Shown piece after piece: positions 8,049 to 42,082 of a stretch of 64,000 nucleotides of DNA; the first letter of the stretch is position 1, and each line of letters starts with the position of its first letter. This stretch comes from Squalus acanthias (Eukaryota): the NCBI GenBank assembly GCA_030390025.1, contig CM059432.1:20028001-20092000 (forward strand), written 5' to 3'. Below the pieces are notes generated by a model. The model was not told where the DNA came from, ran no database searches, and worked only from the letters and a program-made list of their open reading frames with translations. Made by a program: the position numbers and the translations under genes.

Positions 8049-8604
8049 TGCATGGTAAGCATTGTAGTGAATGGTAAGCATTCTGGCAATTCCTTTAGCT
8101 AAAAGCTATAGAAAGCTACAGCTCATTTATTCTCCAAATCAGTCAAGGATAGGCACTGCCAAAAAAAAACCCCACAACTGACTAGAAGATAAACATTTCT
8201 TACCACTCCACAAGAAGCACAGGAGATTTAATGTAGCAATGCAGCTTGTGAAGGTTATGAAAGCCCAGGGACACAATTTTGTTGTCACGGGATAGTTAGC
8301 TGCAGTGGTTTTAAGAGGATGCAAGCTGTTGTAAATCTGACCGCTAGAACTGAGTTGCAGAAATAGCTCAACGCAATCAGCTTTCCATTTCAGAGTTCTG
8401 GAAGCCACTGGCCCTCACAGCCCTCTCCAGGATCACCTTTCTGCTAATGGAGTCACTTACAGTAAATGACAAGGGGCTGAGGAATATAGTTACTGATTTA
8501 AGAACGGAGCTTATGGTGTGAGCGGAAACTATTCCATTTGTGTGGTTCCATGCTTCACTTGGATTTGCCAGATGCGAAACTGCAAAGCAAGCACATTCAC
8601 GTAC

Positions 8605-8658
8605 CTGTCTATTTTTCTGTGTTGCAGGAAGCAATGCTCTGGACTTCTCGGCAACTTT
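8605..8658 (-). CDS. TSNARE1: TSNARE1 coding exon (54 bp, phase 0 to 0): KVAEKSRALLPATQKNRQ
   Basis: Acceptor aattttctcttttcacag, donor CAG|gtacgt. Matches recalled human KIAEKSRALLPMAQRGSKQ and directly continues the previous exon. Confidence 0.93.
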
Positions 8659-9366
8659 CTGTGAAAAGAGAAAATTAACTCAGAGATTGTGTGTGGCAGG
8701 TTTACGTGCCTTAGTCTTTGTATCAAATCACATAAACCTCCAAAAATAAATAAAGAACTTTAAGAACAAAAAGCTCCTGAAATGACTTAGGTATTAAATG
8801 CACTGCACAAAGTAAACACATTGAGATACTGACCATTAAAAGTCTCCAGTTCAATCTCTGGTCTAAGCTGCTATTAACCAGGATTGCTACAATTTCCCCC
8901 AGCTACTGGGCTAGGGAGTGTCAAATGCAGCCAGGTTTCCTCTCCTCATTGCTATCCAGTGTCCCACGTTAGAAACTGAACATGTATGGACTTTGGGTAA
9001 GGAGAGAATTGGGGTCAATTGTGATGTGCTCCATAGCTGAATAGCCCGCCAACACTCACCATCAAGGCTTGGAAATGAGATATGACAACGTAGCTGCTTG
9101 GAGAGTTATGAGAACCCATGGACCCGAGAAAGAGTTGCAATCTTCTGGAGAGGGGGGAAAAATCTTTTTTTTTAAAATCTGATCCCCTTTGCTGTCCATA
9201 TGATTCTAACATTGAATAATTGTAGAGTGAAATTGCAAAAATAATTAGTACCACAGAACAATTAGGAGGCTTACAGATTGTTCTCAAGGGATAGAAGGGA
9301 AAAATGGAAGGTCTATCTATTTTAAAGATGGTAACTGAGATGAATAGTATATAGGACTGTGTTATA

Positions 9367-18010: not shown

Positions 18011-18554
18011 TAAGGACGTTGGGACCTATTGAGAAGTGATGCTTAGTATCAAGTATAGGATGCACCAAGAGGTCCTGCAGCTCTACCTATTTTTCCTCCT
18101 CTCGGTCAGTTAGCATATCATGGGTAACCATGGTCTCAAGGTGATTGCTTGAGGGAGTTGCAGAAGAATTTCCCAGAGTTTTGCCGGAACTTGGTCACGG
18201 GTTTTTTCTGAATTTTTTTGCCTCCCCAAAGAGTTAGTATAACTACTGGTTCAAGAGGTTAGTGTACGAGCTTGCACCATCTAACGGATAAGATAAGTAC
18301 TAATGGACCTCATGATCTTTTCTTACTCATTTTATCGTAAATTCCTATGCATTTGTTAACTCACCAAGGAGAGATTACTTCTAGTTGTTATGTGTTAGCA
18401 ACATTGTAAGATTTTCTCTTATTGCTACATTGGGCAAAATCATAAACCTGTTCTCTAAAGAATGGCATATTAAATACTCCTGTGATTTTTATGACGTCAC
18501 TCACACATGCTGAAGGAAATCTTTCCTTAGGTCACCATGTCTGAGTGACGTCTG

Positions 18555-18835
18555 TAAAAATAAGGGGTCGCCCATTTAAGACAGAGATGAGGAGAACTTT
18601 TTTCTCACAGAGGGTCGTGAGTCTTTGGAACTCTCTTCGTCAGAGGGCGGTGGAAGCAGAGTCTTTGAATATTTTTAAGGCAGAGGTTGATAGATTCTTG
18701 ATGAGCAATGGGGTGAAAGTTTATCGGGGGTAGGTGGGAATGCAGAGTAATCAGATCAGCCATGATCTTATTGAATGGCGGAGCAGGCTCGAGGGGCCAA
18801 GTGGCCTACTCCTGCTCCTAATTCGTCTGTTTGTA
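18555..18835 (+). mobile_element. CR1 3' fragment
   Basis: KIRGRPFKTEMRRTFFSQRVVSLWNSL plus CR1 3'UTR. Confidence 0.88.
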
Positions 18836-19835: not shown

Positions 19836-22115
19836 GGCCCAGAAATTCCATTCGCAGCCCTCCCGCGGTCAGAGGGCTGCGATTCGGAAAAATCTGCGCC
19901 TGGATCGGAGGGCTCCCGGGAGGCGCAGTATTCCGTTGCATTGCCTCTTCAATCTGCCGGTGTGCAGTGCTCGCGTATCTCAGGGGCGCAGCTAGTTCGC
20001 AGCGTCCCTGGGATCACGTGGGCCATGGGGAGCCAATCAGAGCAGGGAATCTCCAGTCATAGATTTGACAGGAAGACCTGTCAAATCTATGAATAGAGAT
20101 CAGCCCCAAAACATAAGTAAAAGTTCAAATACATTTTTTTTAAAAGTCACATTTTTAAAACGACTATAAATTACATAAATTAACTATTTTAAACAAAAAT
20201 TTAAATTTTTGAAAAAAATAATTAAAGTTTTTAACGGGGCTAAAAATAAACTTACCTTTCTTAAAGTATTTTAAAATGATAAATCAGTGGAAATTTTTTT
20301 TTTTACTTTCTTAAACTATTAGCCTGCTAAAAGCAGGCCTTGCGCCTGCTTTTCTAGGTGCAGCTGTTCCCGACTTACCTGGACTCAAGCCAGTGTGAAA
20401 AAAATGGAAGTTTCTAACGTACGCGCTGCCTATCCGGCGCAGGGGTTTGACCTGGGAAGCCCTTTCATAGAAACATAGACGATAGGAGCAGGAGTAGGCC
20501 ATTCGGCCCCTCCAGCCTGCTCCGCCATTTAATGAGATCATGGCTGATCATCCAAATTCAGTACCCTGTCCCTGCTTTCTCCCCATATCCCTTGATCCCT
20601 TTAGCCTTAAGAAATATGTCTATCTCCTTCTTGAATATATTTAATGAATTGGCCTCAACTGCCTTCTGTGGTAGAGAATTCCACAGGTTCACCACTCTCT
20701 GGGTGAAGAAATTCCTCCTCATCTCAGTCCTAAATGGCTTACCCCTTATCCTTAGACTGTGGCCTCTGGTTCTGGACTCCCCCGCCATCGGGAACATCCT
20801 TCCTGCATCTAGACTGTCTAGTCCTGTTAGAATTTTATAAGTTTCAATGAGATCCCCTCTCATTCTTCTGAACTCTAGCAAATACAAGCCCAATCGTCCC
20901 AATCTCTCTTCATACGTCATTCCTGCCATCCCAGGTATCAGTCTGGTGAATCTTCGCTGCACTCCCTCCATGGCAAGAACATCCTTCTCAGATAAGGCGA
21001 CCAAACTGCACACAATACTCAAGGTGTGGTCTCACCAAGGCCTGTACAACTGCAGCAAGACATCCTTGCTCCTGTACTCGAATCGTCTCGCTATGAAGGC
21101 CAACATACCATTTGCCTTCTTAACCGCCTGCTGCACCTGCATGCTTACCTTCAACGACTGGTGCACAAAGACTCCCAGGTCTCATTGCACTTCCCCTTCT
21201 CCCAATCTATTGCCGTTCAGATAATAATCTGCCTTCCTGTTTTTGCCACCAAAGTGGATAACCTCGCATTTATCCACATTATACTGCATCTGCCATGTAT
21301 CTGCCCAATCACCCAACTTGTCCAAATCATACTGGAGTTTCTCTGCATCCTCCTCACAACACACACGCTCACCCAGCTTTGTGTCATCTGCAAACGTGGA
21401 GATATTACATCTAGTTACCTCGTCTAGATCATTAATATATATTGTGAATAACTGGGGTCCTAGCGCCGATCCCTGCGGTACCCCACTAGTCACTGCCTGT
21501 CACTCGGAAAAAGACCCGTTTATTCCAACTCTTTGCTTCCTGTCTGCCAACCAGTTCTCTATCCAAATCAGTACCTTACCCCCAATCCCATGTGCTTTAA
21601 CTTTGCACGCCAATCTCTTATGCGGGACCTTATCGAAAGCCTTCTGAAAGTCCAAATACACCACATCCACTGGTTCTCCCTTATCTATTTTCCCAGTTAC
21701 ATCCTCAAAAAATTCCAGTAGATTAGTCAAGCATGATTTACCTTTTGTAAATCCATGTTGACTTTGTCCGATCCTGTTACTGTTTTCCAAGTCCTCTGCT
21801 ATTACATCTTTTATGATGGACTCTAGCATTTTCCCCACTACCGATGTCAGGCTTACCGGTCTATAATTCCCCGTTTTCTCTCTCCCACCTTTTTTAAATA
21901 GTGGGGTTACATTAGCTACCCTCCAATCCATGGGAACTGTTCCAGAGTCTATGGAATTTTGGAAGATGACCAGCAATGCATCTACTATTTCTGCAGAGAA
22001 CGGAAGTGCCGGTTTCCAGCGCATGCGCAGTGCATGCGTAAAACCGGCACTTCCGTTGGCCCTACGGGTGAGTACACAGCGCATACACACCCGTAGGGAA
22101 CGGAATTTCTAGGCC
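19836..22115. mobile_element. Harbinger-type MITE (about 750 bp net) interrupted by a CR1
   Basis: TIRs ggcccagaaattccatt and aacggaatttctaggcc, 3-bp TSD tat on both sides. Confidence 0.85.
20466..21992 (-). mobile_element. CR1 LINE, 5'-truncated RT, nested in the MITE
   Basis: ORFs 21500-22090 (part), 21182-21493 and 20558-21022 carry CR1 RT motifs. Tail catagaaacataga. Confidence 0.95.
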
Positions 22116-23804: not shown

Positions 23805-24548
23805 GGTCTGGATTTTGCGCTCTCGATGACAGTGACAGCGTACGCCATCATAAGCCATCAGAAAGGCCCCGCAAGTTCCAGGAAAACCTGGCACTTGCGA
23901 TCTGTCAAGGTTCGCCTTGACAGGTCTACCGCACCGACCCAAAAATCACTTTAGCTGGCACAGAGTTAGCGATTTGCCCAACTGCTGCCCAGCAAATGCC
24001 CACAAAACCCTTACACCTGGTAAAAGCAGGCATAGGGCTTGCTTTCACCAGCGTAAGGATTACTATAAATCTGAACTTAAACAGTTAAAAATAAAAAATC
24101 ATGCACAAACATTTACAATTAGTCTGTGTAAATTTTGGCCCGGATTAAAATGCTTAAAATTATTTTTCAAAAAATATTTTTTTTATTGTATATGCTATAT
24201 TGAAGGGACTTTTAATTTAATTTGAAAATGGGGTCATTTATTTTTATTCCAGTTGCATAAATTATTTAATTATTCGGGGATTCCTCACATGCTTATGGGG
24301 ATTCCGTTCGCAAATGGAATCCCATAAGCATATTAGGAATCCTCCTTTCTGATTGGAGGACCTGGCCCATGTGATTCCCAGGAACCACCCACATCCCTGG
24401 GATCCATGGGCCTTTATGCAGGCGTACACCTGGAGGTTCAGGACCCGAAGTGTCCGAAGCCCGGGAGCCTGAAGGAAGGTGTGGATTTTTTTTAAATCGG
24501 GTTGGAGGCGTACTCCGGAGGTACGCCTCCGACTGCAAATTCCGGGCC
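23805..24548. mobile_element. Harbinger-type MITE
   Basis: TIRs ggtctggattttgc and gcaaattccgggcc, TSD att/att, internal hairpin cttatggggattcc..ggaatccccataag. Confidence 0.82.
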
Positions 24549-30181: not shown

Positions 30182-30805
30182 TAATTTGTAACTAGCCGTG
30201 CTCTCTCAGACAGCATCAGCGTGATATAAAGAGAAAATATGTGAAGGCTAGAAATCTGAAACAAAGACAGATGCACAAAGGCAATTTCATACTCCAACTG
30301 CATTAATGAAATGCATACATGAACATCTAATCACCTTGTCACCTACCCACGGCTTTCATTAATTGTTTAGTTGCTTTCAAAATCTTCCTTAATTTTTGAA
30401 ACAAGCTACTATTGTCAGTGTTTAGATGTTGAAGAGTAATGTTTACATGTGCTAGATTGGGGTGCAAAAATAATCTTTTTATTTTGTCCAGAAGAAGAGG
30501 GAAGCTGAGGGGATAAGAAGAATCATTGGGTCTGATGGCAGCCTCTATACAGCCATTCATTTCTAATGGCCTACAGGTTTCAATGGTTGACACTGCTTGA
30601 TGAATGCAGTCACTAAGAACTGCATCAAAGAGGGGCAACTATTCATTGCAATTCAGCACAATTAAACTCTTGATACAATTGATGCATGGCAGGAGGCTAA
30701 ACGGCGAGGTCAGAAATCAGCAAAGCTGCGAGAAAAGTGTGGAAAATGACACGTTTGAAACGTTAATAAGCAATCAAAAGATATTATGAACGTTTGACTG
30801 TTTAC

Positions 30806-30880
30806 CTTCTGCAACCCTCCGTAGCGCTGAATAGAGTCCGAGAGCTGGTTCTTAAGCCTATCCAGCTGTAACCATTCGCG
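30806..30880 (-). CDS. TSNARE1: TSNARE1 coding exon (75 bp, phase 0 to 0): REWLQLDRLKNQLSDSIQRYGGLQK
   Basis: Acceptor tatttctgtttcgtctgcag, donor AAG|gtaaac. In frame with the previous exon. Matches recalled human [21 protein letters not shown]. Confidence 0.94.
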
Positions 30881-31390
30881 CTGCAGACGAAACAGAAATA
30901 TTCATTAAACAGTCCGTGTGCCTCCCCGATAACTGAAATCACCCGTACTGCGTGGCTGGCTAATTTGTAACTAGCCGTGCTCGCTCAGACGCCATTAGCA
31001 TGTTAGAGATAAAAAGAGAAAATATGTGAAGGCTGAAATAACCAAAAATAAAAGAGGTAGCTTTGAAAGTACACTGCAGGTAGGTCAGTCAGCAGCTGAA
31101 GGAGAAGAGATGGGTTGATGCTTGGGCGGGGGTGGGGGGAGCCTTTTTCTCAGCATTGGGGTCACTCATCAAGATAGTAACCCTTTGCACTTTCAGATGC
31201 TGACGGACGACTGTGATTTTTTAGCATCAAAATCTTGCACCCTCGACCATAAATTATGGGTCAATATCGGGGCTGTTGGGCTTGCAGTGACTGAATGGCC
31301 GAGTTGCCCACTTCTGCGCTCACCGGCCAGCGCTTTTCCATCCCTTGAAGTGAATAGGTGGGAAATCGAGGGCCGCTGAGTGCAAAAGAG

Positions 31391-33205
31391 GGGACTGAAT
31401 TTGCTGGAACAGCGTGTTTAGCGATAAACACCATTAACTGGACGTTTTAGCTCCCCCGTTCATATCGCACTATATTTGTGCCAAAAATTGCTGGAACGTC
31501 GATCCGTTAACGGCGTAGCAAGGTCAATGACAAATCAGAAGCCTCATGGATGGTGCGGCCAATGGCTTGCCCCTCAGACCAATTGCATGGCACTATGAAA
31601 AGCCGAGAACAGGTGCCATAACTCAGGTTGAGGCACGGTACTAAGAGTTAAGTGAGCTGCAACTTCTGAAATCACATTACATCAACTTTAAATTGTTAAT
31701 TTCACTTAAAAAAACAACTTTGTAAAAGGTGGTTTAAAGTAATCTCTGGAGTCTGCATGTTCCCTTTTCCACAGAAATGTAGCAGGAAGAACAGAAAAGG
31801 AGGCGATCAAATTTTGGGGGCGAGGACCTCTTGGATGAGGTGGAGCGTCGGCGAGACCGGCTGCTGGGGACTGCAAGGGCAAGGGCTCCCCGAAAGGTCA
31901 GCCGGATGGTGCGGAGGGAGTTTGCCACCTCAGTCGTCCAACGCTCGGGAGACTAGTGCAGGAAAAGAAATACAACAATCTGACCAGGGAAAGCAAGGTA
32001 AGCATTCTCAGGGCTTTAATTCAGAACGCGCAAATCTATTGTAAGTAGTAGAAAACTAATTGTTGTCTGTCTCTGTGATTGTTTTTTTGAATGGCTTGAG
32101 ATGCAAAGGAGTTGTCCTTCAGTGGTGGATTGCACGATCTGATCTGTTTGTTTGCTCAAGCTAGAATCTAAAAGCAAGTGAGTCATAAAAGTCTATTGCC
32201 ATGGGAGGCAACACTTCCATGGTGGCCAGCTGATGAATTTGACAACTTCAGTCTCTGCTGAAGAAAATATTCCAATGTCGGAAAAGAAGCCTGTCAGATC
32301 GACACCTCTACCTCACACAAAGCAAGACACCATGGGGAAGAAATTGGTCTTGGGCGGTCGTGCTAAATGGGCGGTATCGCATCAGCCACCCGTTATACTC
32401 CCCGACCAATATTCAGTTCTATTTAAGTCAACGGAACTGACTATCAGGCAGGGTATACCACGGGTAGCAAATTCAATACCACCTGTTTAGCGCGACCACC
32501 CAAGACCAATTTCTACCCCCTAAATTCTTCCCTGGTTTCCCCTGCAGGGCAAGTAATTCATAACACTCGGGAGCGTGCGTAAAGTGGAGGAGGAATCCCA
32601 TTTCTTGAAGGAGTTGGCGCTCCATGAGAACAAGGGTTCATAATGCCACTACAATATGCCCCTGAAGAAGTGGCAAAGATTGCGCACTGCACAATTTTGC
32701 CCTGCAGGAAGGGTTTAATCTTGACTTGGCAGATGCGATGCCCATGGAACTGAAAGATCCCAACCCGCATGTCCCTGGGCACGTCCATGGCTGGTGGCCT
32801 CTCGGAAGGAGGCACGGTGGCAGCGGCCATGGTGGCCAGACAGCAGCTGGTGGCTCATGTGTTTGGACAAAGACAGCCACCACCATTATTTGCCCGTCTT
32901 AAGTGGCTGCGGCATGATTCATGGTGAATAACGGCGCAAATCCAGCAAATTGGCGATCGCCATTGACTGCAAAGACGGGCTGAGTGAAGAGAACAGACTT
33001 TTATTGGCTTAGGTGAGCCTATTGCCGGAGTGGCACAAGTGTCCCAGCAAATTACGGTGCAACGCAACACGTGGTGGCTCTCTTTGTCCAAACACATGGT
33101 GTCTCTCACTTACTCCGGCATTTGCTGGGACTTTTCCGTATTAATAATGGGGCGGGCCGTTAATGCATCATCACTATGGCGCGAGTTCCCAGCAATTTCA
33201 GGCCC
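31391..33205. mobile_element. Non-autonomous Harbinger-derived element with Myb/SANT relic (31780-31998, +)
   Basis: TIRs gggactgaatttgctgg and ccagcaatttcaggccc. Relic reads KRRRSNFGGEDLLDEVERRRDRLLG..QRSGD*CRK/KYNNLTRESK then gtaag. Confidence 0.75.
32334..32520. mobile_element. Small MITE with about 45-bp TIRs nested in the Harbinger-derived element
   Basis: ggggaagaaattggtcttgggcggtcgtgctaaatgggcggtat pairs with ataccacctgtttagcgcgaccacccaagaccaatttctacccc. Confidence 0.85.
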
Positions 33206-33788: not shown

Positions 33789-33879
33789 CCTGGATGATCC
33801 ACGCACTATTTCCGAAAGCTGCTTAATATACTTTGTGGAAGAGCTGATGGTTTTATTCGTCTCCTGCTGTGTTGCATGC
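33789..33879 (-). CDS. TSNARE1: TSNARE1 coding exon (91 bp, phase 2 to 0): [30 protein letters not shown]
   Basis: Minus strand shows polypyrimidine acceptor cctcccttctgttttgccaaag and donor AGG|gtaagt. Only one frame is open. The peptide matches recalled human TSNARE1 [28 protein letters not shown] (syntaxin Habc region). Confidence 0.93.
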
Positions 33880-34599: not shown

Positions 34600-36085
34600 A
34601 TCACCAGATCTGTTTGGACAACATCAAGATCTACTGGGCCTCATTCCTCTCTGCCAAAACTCACCCATTACCCTAGGATAATCCTGGAGAGCAAAGATAA
34701 CCCCTGGCTTCTTTTCTCCGCTACCAACCACCTCCTGAAGCACATCTTCCCTCACCCTCACCTCTAACAAGTGTGAGAAGCTCACGGATTTCTTTGTCAC
34801 CAAGGTAGCGACCATCCATTCAACTGCTTCTGCTGCTTTCCACCTTTCCCTTGCCCACAAAGAATGAAGAACCCCCCAAGATTCTCCCCTCGCCCTATTC
34901 CTGAACCCTGGTCTATTTCTTGCCCAATTTCCTCTATGCCCTCTCCAACCTCATCTAACTAAGTGACCTACCTCCTGCTCCCTCAACCCCATTCCTGATA
35001 ACCATCCATCCTCCCTTTGTGGCCCCCATGTTAGCTAACATTATAAATGATTCTTTCTCCTCAGGCACTATCCCTCTCCCTTTCCGAACCATTGTCATCA
35101 ACTCTTCTCAAAATAAATTGACGCAGTCCATCTGTCCTTGCAAACCACTACCCAATGTCCAACCTCACTTTTCTCTCCAAAGTCCTTGAAAGTACTGTCT
35201 ACTCACTGATCGCTTTCCATTTTCTCCCGCAACTCGCCATTTCAATCTCACCAGTCAGATTTCTGCTCCTCCAACAACACCAAAACAACCTTAGTCAAAG
35301 TCACAAATGACATTCTCTGTGACTGATGCATTAACCCTCCTTGACCTGTACAGCCTTTGACATGGTGAAACACACCATCGTCCTCCAATGTCACTCTTCA
35401 TCTGTCCAGCTCTGCTTGGACGCTTATCTATCCTTGTGACCAGAACACTGCTACCAATGGATTCTCTTCCCACCACTAAAGTGTCACCAAGGATCCATCC
35501 TTTGCCTGTTCCTCATCAACATACTCGGCGACATCATCTGCAGACATAGGGTCAGCTTCCATACATACACTGATGACACCAGCTATACTTCTCCAGCACC
35601 TTTCTTGACCCCTCCACTGCCTGCTGTGAGAATGCTTGCCTGACATCCAATCTCGAATGAGCTACAATTACAAAGACTCCACCACATGCTCCATACCCTG
35701 TCCACTGACTCTATCCAAAATTCTGGTACTGTCTCAGGCTGAATCACACTGTTCACAATTCAACAAGCTATTTATCCCAAGCTGAGCTTATAGACCTCAT
35801 ATACTCTTCATTCCAAAGACTTTACTTCCATCTCTGTAACATCACCACCCCTGACCTCAGTCCATCTGCCGCTGAAACCTTCATTCATGCCTCTGACACC
35901 TCCAGACTCGACTATTCCAATGTTCTCTTGGCCGGCCTGCTATCTTCTATCCTCCATAAACTTCAGCTTATCCAAAACTCTGTTGGTTGCATCCTATATC
36001 ACACCAAGTTCTGCTTCCCCATTAGCCCTCTCCTCACTGATCTGCATTGGCACTCGGTCCCCAGCGCCTCAAATTTAAAATTGCG
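34600..36085 (+). mobile_element. Ancient decayed L2-like LINE
   Basis: C-rich strand with remnants gtcaaagtcacaaatgacatt (VKVTNDI), gcctttgac, tacactgatgacacc (YxDDT) and LHKLQLIQNS..ISPLLTDLHW. Confidence 0.72.
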
Positions 36086-36221
36086 TGCAAAAACAACTGC
36101 AAACGCCTCTTCCATGACTGTAAATTATCTAACTGCAAGAGTTACAAATCCACAAACTTCTCAACAATTACTATAAATGGAGCATTTCATTAATTTTACC
36201 TATCTACTTTCATATATGCTG

Positions 36222-36988
36222 ATGCGGAGATGCCGGCGTTGGACTGGGGTGGACAAAAATGAGAAGTCACACAACACCAGGTTATAGTCCAACAGATTTA
36301 TTTAAAATTACAAGCTTTCGGAGCTGTCGCCCCTTCGTCAGGCAAAGTTACTGTGAGAGAATCTATCAGAATTCACAGAATATAAAAACACAGAGAAAAT
36401 GCATAGATTAAATCTTTCCCTACATCAAAGACACACTAAGAGCACAGCCAAGACAATGAGATGTGTCCCAGGGGGTCCAACGCGTCAGAACACCTGCTGG
36501 CTGCATATCTTCTCCATTTTTTGTTTGTTTCTTGTGTTTTTTTTTTTAAAAACTGGAAAGACCGGCAACGATGTCAAGTCACGTTCTATAGCGTGACATG
36601 AACCCGATATCCCGATTGAGGCCTCAATCGGGATATCGGGTTCATGTCACGCTATAGAACGTGACTTGACATCGTTGCCGGTCTTTCCAGTTTTTAAAAA
36701 AAAAACACAAGAAACAAACACAAAAAATGGAGAGGATATGCAGCCAGCAGGTGTTCTGACGCGTTGGACCCCCTGGGACACATCTCATTGTCTTGGCTGT
36801 GCTCTTAGTGTGTCTTTGATGTAGGGAAAGATTTAATCTATGCATTTTCTCTGTGTTTTTATATTCTGTGAATTCTGATAGATTCTCTCACAGTAACTTT
36901 GCCTGACGAAGGGGCGACAGCTCCGAAAGCTTGTAATTTTAAATAAATCTGTTGGACTATAACCTGGTGTTGTGCGACTTCTCATTTT
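36222..36988. mobile_element. Non-coding Penelope-like inverted pseudo-LTR element: spacerless palindrome with 34-nt tail, 14-bp TSD and hammerhead-like motifs
   Basis: Arms 36256-36621 and 36622-36988 are near-perfect reverse complements centred on ttgagg|cctcaa. Unpaired 34-nt extension 36222-36255. tttcatatatgctg at 36208-36221 and 36986-36999. Confidence 0.88.
36903..36932 (+). ncRNA. Hammerhead-ribozyme-like core (PLE type); mirror copy on the minus strand at 36312-36341
   Basis: CTGACGA-A, stem-loop GGGGC-gaca-GCTCC, GAAA, then palindromic AAGCTT. Stems I and III are not clearly canonical. Confidence 0.6.
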
Positions 36989-37054
36989 CATATATGCTGG
37001 TTGACTTTTCATGGTGTTGCTCAACTACGGTCTAGGGTCTGAAGTGTGGTTGTG

Positions 37055-39671: not shown

Positions 39672-41081
39672 TACAAAAGCAAAATACTACGGATGCTGGA
39701 AATCTGAAATAACAACAGAAAGTGAGGGAAACACTCAGCAGGTCAGGCAGCATCGAGGAGAGAGAAACAGAGTTAATGTTTCGAGTCGAACCCTTCGTCA
39801 GAACTGGAAAAGGTTAGGGAACAGAAATTTTTAAGCAGGGGCAGGGAGGAGGGGAGGAAAGAACAAAGGGAAGGTCTGTGATAGGATGGAAGGCAGGAGA
39901 GATTAAGAGACAAAAGGGATGATGGTGCAAGGCAAAAGGAGATGGTAATGGGACAAGTTAAGAAACAAAAGATGGCTCTAGGTAGATGAGGTGTGAATGA
40001 TGATGGCAACAACATTAACAGCAACCATGTGAGGAAACAAGAGGAAAAAAATAAAGAAAGAAATACAGGGGCCAATTTATAGTCTGAAATTGTTGAACTC
40101 GATATTAAGTCCAGAAGGCTGTAAAGTGCCTAATAGAAAAATGAGGTGCTGTTCCTCGAGCTTACGTTGAGCTTCATTGGAACAGTGTAAGAGGCCGAGG
40201 ACGGAGAGGTCAGAGTGGGAATGGAGGGGAGAATTAAAGTGACAGGCGACCGGAAGCTCGGGGTCACGCTTGCAGACTGAATGGTGGTGTTCCGCAAAGC
40301 AGCCACCCAATCTGCATTTGGTCTCCCCAATGTAGAGGAGACCGCATCGTGAGCAGCGAATACAGTACACTAAATTGTAAATACAACAAGTAAATCGCTG
40401 TTTCACCTGGAAGGAGTGTTTGGGGCCTTGGACAGTGGGAAGGGAGGAGGTAAAAGGGCTGGTGTTGCATCTCCTGCGCTTGCATGGGAAGGTGCCGGGC
40501 GAAGGGGAAGGGGTGTTGGGGGTGATAGAGGAGTGGATGGGTGTCATGGAGGGAGCGGTCCCTTCGGAATGCTGAAAGGGGGGGAGGGGAAGATGTGTTT
40601 GGTGGTGGGATCACGCTGGAGGTGGCGGAAATGGCGGAGGATGATCTGTTGAATGTGGAGGCTGGTGGGGTGAAAGGTGAGGACAAGGGGAACCCTATCG
40701 TGGTTCTGGGAAGGAGGGGAAGGGGTGAGAGCAGAAGTGTGGGAAAATGGAACGGACACGGTCGAGGGCCATGTCAACCACGGTAGAGGGGAATCCTCCG
40801 TTGAGCAAAAAAGACTAGTATGGAAGGTGGCATCGTCAGATCAAATGCGGCGGAGACGGAAAAACTGGGAGAATGGAATAGAGTCCTTACAGGAGGCGGG
40901 GTGGGAGGAAGTGTAGTCCAGGTAGCTGTGGAGTCAGTGGGCTTCTAGTGGATGTTGGTTGATAGCCTATCCCCAGAAATGGAGACAGAGAAGTCGAGGA
41001 AGGGAAGGGAAGAGTCTGTCTCCATTTCTGGGAATAGGCTATCGACCAACATCCACTGACTCCCACAGCTACCTGGACTAC
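39672..41081 (-). mobile_element. Penelope-like element (RT C-terminus, GIY-YIG, 3' region), 5'-truncated with a short terminal inversion
   Basis: ORF 40077-40547 (NLVYCIRCSRCGLLYIGETK) and 40544-40777 (DRVPLVLTFHP). Hammerhead-like ctgacgaagggttcgactcgaaacattaac at 39801-39772. Inverted segment 41013-41081. Confidence 0.93.
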
Positions 41082-42082
41082 AGAAGATACTGATTCATTG
41101 GTCGGGTATAGTTCCACAGGCGCTGGTCACAAGTGGTGATGTTTGAGCCTAGACATTGAATATTGATAGACTATTCAACTGTCGGACGGGATGGTATCTC
41201 AGCTATATTCAAACAAACAAACTTCGGGGTTACGAGGCACATTGGAAGTGACTGATTTTCCTTTCCCAACTCAGGGACACTGAGGCCAGTCGCAGCACCC
41301 GAGCTGAGATAAGCTAACTCAGTTCAGACTGGGGAATCAAACCTGAGACATTCCTGCTCTATGTGGCTCAATGTCTTGACTAGCTCAGCCATCATTGGAA
41401 ATGTTATTTAAAGATAAATCCCAGTTATTTGCTTATTTTACCATTATTGATAATTAAGACGTTTATATTAAAAAAGAACTGAAAGTTACAACACAAAATT
41501 AAGTCATACAAAATGTACTGTAAGCAACACATCGAATAGCCTTGTGGCACTTTGGTACTTGAGTAAAATCAACAGGGACTGAAAGAAAACGAAGCTGCCA
41601 AAGGTATTAAACAACATTAGATGTTCCTGAAACTGAACTGTGGAACACTGTAGCGAGAGGTCAAAGTACTAAATCCATGATGATTCTAATTAGAGAATAG
41701 GCACTTGAGCTCCCAGTAGCTGTGATTCTCTCCTTGAGGAATGTTAACTTAAGATCTTTCTCAGTTAGCGCACATAGATTAGGCTGCTGACACGTGGCAG
41801 GAACTTGTCACAAGAAATGAATGGAAGGGAATGATTTCATGATCCCACACTCCCAGCAGGGAAGCCGACTCATTGGGAACACAGGTCGTAGCACTATTCT
41901 CTTTCCGATGCTCCCTGCGAATGGGGCTTCCTGCTGGAAGCACAGCACTGGGGAGTCACTCTTACACACTCTGCAGTTGTGGTAACAAGGAGACCAGGGA
42001 CTGCAGAGGGAGAATTGTAATTGAAGACTGCAGCAGTAGGAGTAACAAGAAGAACAGGCAGAAATGGGAGACATATGGGTGC

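Follow-up and report, generated by a model that had tools for sequence, protein, structure and literature searches.

How Penelope-like elements come by their tandem and inverted structures and their tail has been called undefined (Craig et al. 2021, PMC8557442). The same source describes the EN+ elements Neptune and Nematis, in which 5′-truncated copies are joined to an inverted truncated copy, with a 30-40-bp tail at one end and a hammerhead motif in the pseudo-LTR. Their protein has a C-terminal GIY-YIG domain, a CX2-5CxxC linker and two cysteines in the GIY-YIG core (PMC8557442). The family of the locus reported here shares these features. Compared with the Neptune and Nematis copies, the locus retains only the last ~400 nt of the element, and both of its arms are cut at one point (PMC8557442). 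It lies in the 64-kb stretch of Squalus acanthias DNA analysed here (the window) and is a symmetric case of the inverted, tailed and truncated Penelope-like insertions already described.

A first-pass annotation of the window had described a palindrome without a spacer, and this is what the locus holds: arms 36256-36621 and 36622-36988 are reverse complements and abut directly. The arms differ at few sites, as had also been claimed, with 363 of 365 aligned bases identical, two substitutions (one of the CpG type), one 2-nt indel and one 1-nt indel; two of the four differences sit in simple runs. The flanking duplication, TTTCATATATGCTG, has exactly two occurrences in the 64-kb window, at 36208 and 36986. 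A 34-nt tail and a 14-bp duplication are both real, but they are only one of several valid parses, since TG at 36220-36221 and TTT at 36986-36988 fit the element as well as the duplication. Measured on the coordinates of the family, the tail has about 36 nt, 34 of them outside the duplication. The features of the locus and of its host gene are as follows.

36208..36221, + strand: left copy of the target-site duplication, 14 bp at most; its last TG also fits the tail
36220..36255, - strand: Penelope tail, about 36 nt; in full-length copies (L035, L042) it ends at the ORF start codon
36256..36623, - strand: tailed arm, with the last ORF codons and the 3′ UTR/pseudo-LTR, 5′-truncated at GGCC
36308..36345, - strand: second hammerhead motif, the only one in sense orientation in the TSNARE1 pre-mRNA, where full pairing is predicted
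36579-36623, - strand: mirror copy of the ORF end, GLNRDIGFMSRYRT and stop
36620..36623, no strand: palindrome centre GGCC, a self-complementary 4-nt overlap of both arms
36620..36988, + strand: tail-less arm, the identical 3′ segment, stopping at the inner start site
36620..36664, + strand: last 14 codons and stop of the RT/GIY-YIG ORF, GLNRDIGFMSRYRT and stop
36899..36936, + strand: minimal type I hammerhead motif, antisense to TSNARE1
36986..36999, + strand: right copy of the target-site duplication; its first TTT also fits the T run of the element
33789-33879, - strand: TSNARE1 exon, approximately residues 80-110, which comes after the ~163-kb intron containing the element
30803-30886 and 8596-8661, - strand: further TSNARE1 exons

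Five older, imperfect inverted repeats are present elsewhere in the window (32334-32519, 40912-41082, 18485-18561, 20049-20100 and 24278-24342), with 73-85% self-match. None of them matches the Penelope family of the locus, and the one at 32334-32519 looks MITE-like. No other match to this family was found in the 64-kb window.

The proposed Penelope-like origin of the palindrome was upheld. One arm searched against its own genome gave 2948 candidates, and among the 40 scored the top identity was 97-99%. All 29 of the other loci fetched read on past the centre of the window's palindrome, and in the long copies the further sequence stays open and encodes RT motifs, the linker CHGNLCKTC and a domain of GIY-YIG type, ending in GLNRDIGFMSRYRT. 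The statement that the locus has no RT or GIY-YIG coding was therefore wrong in detail, since each arm opens with exactly the last 14 codons of this ORF. Copy L034 is an open frame of 932 codons with a match to RVT_1 (E 5.5e-9) and a GIY-YIG domain at E 0.0006, below the curated cut-off. A single ORF with RT and then GIY-YIG, partial tandems with a pseudo-LTR (which precedes the ORF in copy L035), inverted truncated copies, a tail and a duplication are the characters of EN+ Penelope-like elements, and all were found in the family. Judged from its sequence, each arm represents the 3′ end of a young Penelope-like element that codes for RT, a CX4CxxC linker and GIY-YIG. The family is putatively of the Neptune/Nematis type, the two being named jointly, because its linker (CHGNLCKTC, of the CX2-5CxxC form) and the two nuclease-core cysteines (VVYLIRCSKGCPRAWYIG, with two downstream histidines, as in the CCHH motif) match the published definition (PMC8557442). 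The nearest named proteins are from shark, with 82-91% identity, and no prior description of shark Neptune elements was found in the literature searched, a scope outside which lay subscription papers, Repbase, Dfam and supplements. In copies L035 and L042 the ORF ATG stands directly after the tail, so that the template was likely a tandem transcript, copied from the junction of pseudo-LTR and ORF onward.

The first-pass annotation had taken the locus for a palindromic mini-element, non-autonomous and akin to retrozymes, that is copied as a unit, and had named ordinary coding copies with varied inversion points as the outcome that would speak against this. Such copies are what the genome contains: the sisters are truncated forms of the coding element with many inversion points. 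The 24-nt palindrome centre occurs at one place genome-wide, this locus, and falls within the last 14 ORF codons, at GGCC, cutting the end of the ORF; 551 exact genome matches read through the same position as normal ORF. Retrozymes consist of tandem direct repeats (PMC7229834; bioRxiv 2026.07.22.740005), and here the two hammerhead motifs are on opposite strands. The locus is a single inverted pair with an ORF end and a single-copy centre, not a multi-copy ORF-free unit in tandem direct repeats with a hammerhead each. Short palindromes of tail and hammerhead are common, and a shorter centre, GGTACC, with units of ~225 bp, is shared by six loci (L149-L154) of a subfamily having that self-complementary site; both observations could suit a mini-element. 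However, the six copies are centred on a self-complementary 4-mer, as expected of independent symmetric joins, and GGTACC is likely a hot spot of symmetric joining rather than a sign of spread as a unit. A spreading mini-element is thus very improbable. The locus is a dead one-off, in which a young coding Penelope-like element was inserted head to head and 5′-truncated.

The palindrome might also be an assembly or long-read fold-back artefact, which we consider hardly credible. The contig comparison drew on 4 of the 20 listed runs and on the region 35300-36650, which includes one arm. None of the listed contigs spans the centre or satisfies the 31-letter rule at the left junction, and the two arm differences in simple runs also leave room for an artefact; as contigs break in repeats, a missing centre is no proof of one. 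Against it, the duplication flanks both ends, these ends fall on the two fixed sites of the family, and the arms differ by two substitutions, including the CpG one. In the related organisms B and C, agreement of the contigs with the left flank stops precisely at 36221, where the left duplication ends, and 98 unlike letters follow, suggesting an empty site in both organisms. Contigs from two samples of organism A fit to 36230, which is 9 letters into the tail and short of the 31-letter rule, and the following 30 letters do not. The two substitutions between the arms and the 98-99% identity to the sisters agree with the earlier reading of a recent insertion with a duplication. In the flank 35300-36230 both organism A samples differ from the window at several sites (~1%). 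Organisms B and C agree with A at some of these, so the window has private alleles or errors there.

The hammerhead 41-mer of the family has 693 exact genome matches. The first 100 of these, in genome order, yielded 80 insertions; as the 41-mer was required, shorter copies are missed in this sample. Both orientations were present in 43 insertions, and 37 were single-arm. Two of the 43 were set aside (L121, tail-to-tail, and L144, with one 3′ end missing), and the other 41 were head-to-head with both 3′ ends intact. Exactly one tail was found in each of these (41/41). Duplications in the 43 were of 12 bp (20 insertions), 13 bp (9), 14 bp (3) or another length (3), and were not found in 8. Inversion centres vary widely among the sampled head-to-head sisters, most of which have unequal arms; among the 10 genome-order cases with clear asymmetry, the tail was on the longer arm in 4 and on the shorter one in 6. 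Single-arm copies were tail-less (22) or tailed (15), many with duplications of 9-14 bp. A hidden short second arm passed a 9-nt test in 3 of the 37 (control 2.9%), with only L141 convincing; the search template has one extra base at the tail/ORF boundary and may shorten a stub by one. L141 is a two-arm insertion whose tailed arm is just a 10-nt stub next to a 12-bp duplication. L135 is a complex insertion with an extra inverted piece of the 5′ part of the ORF between its arms. Loci L146-L148 were counted solely in the motif tally.

The two arms of one insertion agreed in 56 of 57 comparisons at three subfamily sites, which are linked, so that these comparisons represent about 20 insertions. 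Rare variants common to both arms numbered 18, against 0.6 for random partners. Sites 2543/2544 were left out of the allele test as homopolymer alignment noise; with both kept, discordance was 14 versus 40 for random partners. Joints were compared in 49 insertions, of which 27 were genome-order loci and 22 were picked for long tailed arms. Arms overlapped at the junction by at least 2 nt in 22 of these (16% at random), and 18 of the 49 had added letters at the joint, some of which are private mismatches. At the joints of L047, L117 and L133 the added letters are locally repeated, and the L133 addition is itself palindromic, which suggests template jumps or end-joining synthesis. Symmetric centres were enriched, with 4 in 30 long-armed cases (window excluded) where 0.54 were expected (P ~0.001), and were found across arm lengths. 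At most 2 unpaired bases were left at the centre in 6 of 40 genome-order cases. The automatic centre measure stops at any mismatch between arms and its counts are thus lower bounds.

A spacerless palindrome longer than that of the window, 969 bp, was found in the same Penelope family (L102:236-1204, near 110149785-110150753), with centre CCGCGG, one tail and a 12-bp duplication. Related families contain palindromes of tail plus arm at L032:4543-4753, L036:2010-2221, L046:125-289, L047:9576-9717 and L048:9265-9474. These five, of 140-210 bp, were chance finds in 20 fetched 10-kb stretches, so such palindromes must be very abundant in the genome.

We suggest, with a probability of about 0.7, that a staggered cut left two 3′ ends, that each of them primed reverse transcription on the same RNA, and that the two cDNAs were joined at GGCC. 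This mechanism is reconstructed entirely from finished insertions. The element protein, perhaps as a dimer, would cut the two target strands 12-14 nt apart. One 3′-OH would start at the outer site, which is the end of the tail and the ORF ATG of the tandem transcript, and the other at the inner site ~36 nt upstream, giving one tailed and one tail-less arm that face inward. Both cDNAs would halt early, mostly at unlike points and at the window locus at the same point. Their ends could then pair through the self-complementary GGCC, by annealing or by a template jump between nascent strands, followed by fill-in. The hammerheads would be passengers of the pseudo-LTR.

The geometry of the insertions is that, on each strand, the 3′ end of the target runs into sequence of cDNA polarity. 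Tail-less single-arm copies with clean duplications and no hidden arm indicate that synthesis can also start at the inner end, and the occurrence of both tailed and tail-less single-arm copies indicates that each end can start an insertion alone. Were the start chosen independently at the single-arm rate (15/37 tailed), about half of the copies would be expected to show two tails or none (0.48 per copy). At the window locus the two arms extend to one and the same base, with GGCC common to both. The anole Penelope-like protein, a predicted dimer, cuts and extends both strands in vitro, with two start sites that bound the tail and no difference in start site between the strands (PMC11167929). 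In view of this, the in vitro result does not extend to the one-tail rule. The single tail, the inner starts, a shared template, the overlaps at the joints and the anole result together favour priming from both strands.

The first-pass annotation had instead proposed fold-back priming. In the scheme weighed here, a single cDNA halts, turns back on itself and uses its own first strand as template, and later endonuclease trimming makes the difference in tails. A variant is self-priming on an antisense template, the form in which fold-back has been proposed for the palindromes at inverted junctions of Penelope (Arkhipova et al. 2013, PMC3846280). Craig et al. suggest that the tail is the product of endonuclease resolution (PMC8557442). 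Matching arm alleles and shared rare variants indicate that the arms come from one template, which would fit fold-back or later gene conversion equally with one RNA, and the excess of symmetric and near-symmetric centres is predicted by fold-back just as well. A hairpin loop needs a minimum of 3 nt. The centre in the window has no loop, and the six genome-order centres with at most 2 unpaired bases are also below this minimum. Two identical ends overlapping by GGCC can pair but a single strand cannot fold there without a loop, which favours the joining of two ends. Moreover, the tail-less single-arm copies with duplications mark the inner end as a start site, and a single tail in 41/41 copies, on the longer or the shorter arm, would demand an extra rule for trimming. 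Fold-back is therefore the weaker mechanism, leaving the loop-less centre and the single tail unexplained, and we regard it as unlikely. A hybrid of two primings with fold-back at the joint only is counted within the probability given to both-strand priming.

A longer inverted insertion could instead have lost its spacer by a later deletion that left a perfect palindrome. The unequal arms of most sister insertions would provide the starting point, and GGCC could have served a later repair event. However, the insertion is young, with two substitutions between its arms, and symmetric centres are seen across arm lengths. Processing of palindromes is also expected to add asymmetry at the centre, not to remove it. 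Later spacer loss is accordingly extremely improbable beside priming from both strands.

A hammerhead-like motif was confirmed in both arms, as CTGACGA-stem-GAAAGCTT, at 36903 on the + strand and at 36341 on the - strand. Its parts follow in the order UUGC, CUGACGA, stem II, GAAA, palindromic AGCU, U and GUAA, with a bulged base before stem II. The sequence thus has the elements of a minimal type I hammerhead, namely the CUGANGA and GAAA boxes, stems I and II, a palindromic stem III region and NUH. The 4-bp pairing of stem I is kept across related families (UUGC/GUAA, UUAC/GUAA and UCAC/GUGA) in the few sequences compared. An Rfam hammerhead search of the locus gave no match at E values up to 10. 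Hairpin-shaped microRNA models in Rfam came out below cut-offs and were rejected as meaningless. Minimal Penelope hammerheads cleave weakly, as dimers or with protein (PMC4209133; PMC11167929). The transcript of either strand has only one sense hammerhead, predicted to be buried in the duplex, and as the motifs lie on opposite strands no tandem dimer can form within one RNA. Truncations cluster near the hammerhead, but ribozyme cleavage was dismissed as their cause, since they fall upstream of the predicted cut and the sampled copies had been chosen for containing the 41-mer.

The element lies in an intron of TSNARE1, 2.3 kb before the splice acceptor of exon 33789-33879, in agreement with the first-pass annotation. 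This exon matches named cartilaginous-fish TSNARE1 proteins by up to 97-100% over its length. A shark TSNARE1 protein aligns to the contig one exon after another, with the preceding exon ~163 kb away, and the gene takes up more than 500 kb of the contig. The long hairpin that had been proposed for the pre-mRNA stands as a prediction, with 366 pairs and -684.5 kcal/mol for the - strand RNA, and a long intronic double-stranded RNA from the palindrome is plausible on this folding model. Among the listed sequencing runs that contain the flank, none is from RNA. No host function is indicated, and the locus is ordinary.

The family is of modest importance, in that it makes sharp predictions for the open question of how Penelope-like elements invert. 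The one-tail rule, the shared arm alleles and the loop-less centres link the anole in vitro result to genomic structure. A one-tail rule or an account of Penelope inversions by both-strand priming was not found in the literature searched; subscription papers and supplements lay outside this scope, and a prior description may exist. The odds are about even for the wider claim that a dimeric RT-endonuclease, using both strands of a 12-13-nt staggered cut and two fixed sites on one RNA, produces exactly one tail in every two-armed insertion, and perfect palindromes when the cDNAs stop together, and that the shark family settles the inversion mechanism. The family seeds long perfect palindromes into introns, with likely hundreds of inverted pairs per genome, and could serve as vertebrate material for work on the stability of palindromes and on intronic double-stranded RNA.

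In the twin priming of L1, both target strands reportedly prime on one RNA, with microhomology at the joint and the duplication kept. The L1 cDNAs copy adjacent parts of the RNA, whereas the Penelope arms here copy the same part, giving an inverted repeat. PAc, a Poseidon-type element of Anolis carolinensis (Frangieh et al. 2024, PMC11167929), likewise starts at two sites that delimit the tail and lie close to the junction of pseudo-LTR and ORF. It shares AT-rich targets and a hammerhead upstream of the tail with the family of the locus (PMC11167929). The start sites and the hammerhead cut of PAc lie within the start of the ORF, whereas the tail of the shark family ends at the ATG (PMC11167929). 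Poseidon elements are without the linker zinc finger, unlike the shark family. No discussion of inverted insertions was found in the searched text of PMC11167929. Penelope elements of the rotifer Adineta vaga (Arkhipova et al. 2013, PMC3846280) have the same head-to-head inverted pseudo-LTRs, one tail and palindromes at the junctions, with duplications of 8-10 bp. The Adineta vaga copies are few, mostly old and read as self-priming (PMC3846280), whereas those of the shark family number hundreds, are young and favour priming from both strands.

The motifs of the locus share with the minimal Penelope hammerheads (Cervera and de la Pena 2014, PMC4209133) the type I core, the palindromic stem III region and the want of a stable monomer, as well as the bulged base before a stem II that starts with G-C. 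They differ in that the two copies at the locus are on opposite strands (PMC4209133). Non-LTR retrozymes (PMC7229834; bioRxiv 10.64898/2026.07.22.740005) likewise carry the hammerhead, are derived from Penelope and measure a few hundred bases. Retrozymes are arranged as tandem direct repeats that give rise to circular RNAs (PMC7229834), whereas the locus is an inverted single copy with a residue of the ORF.
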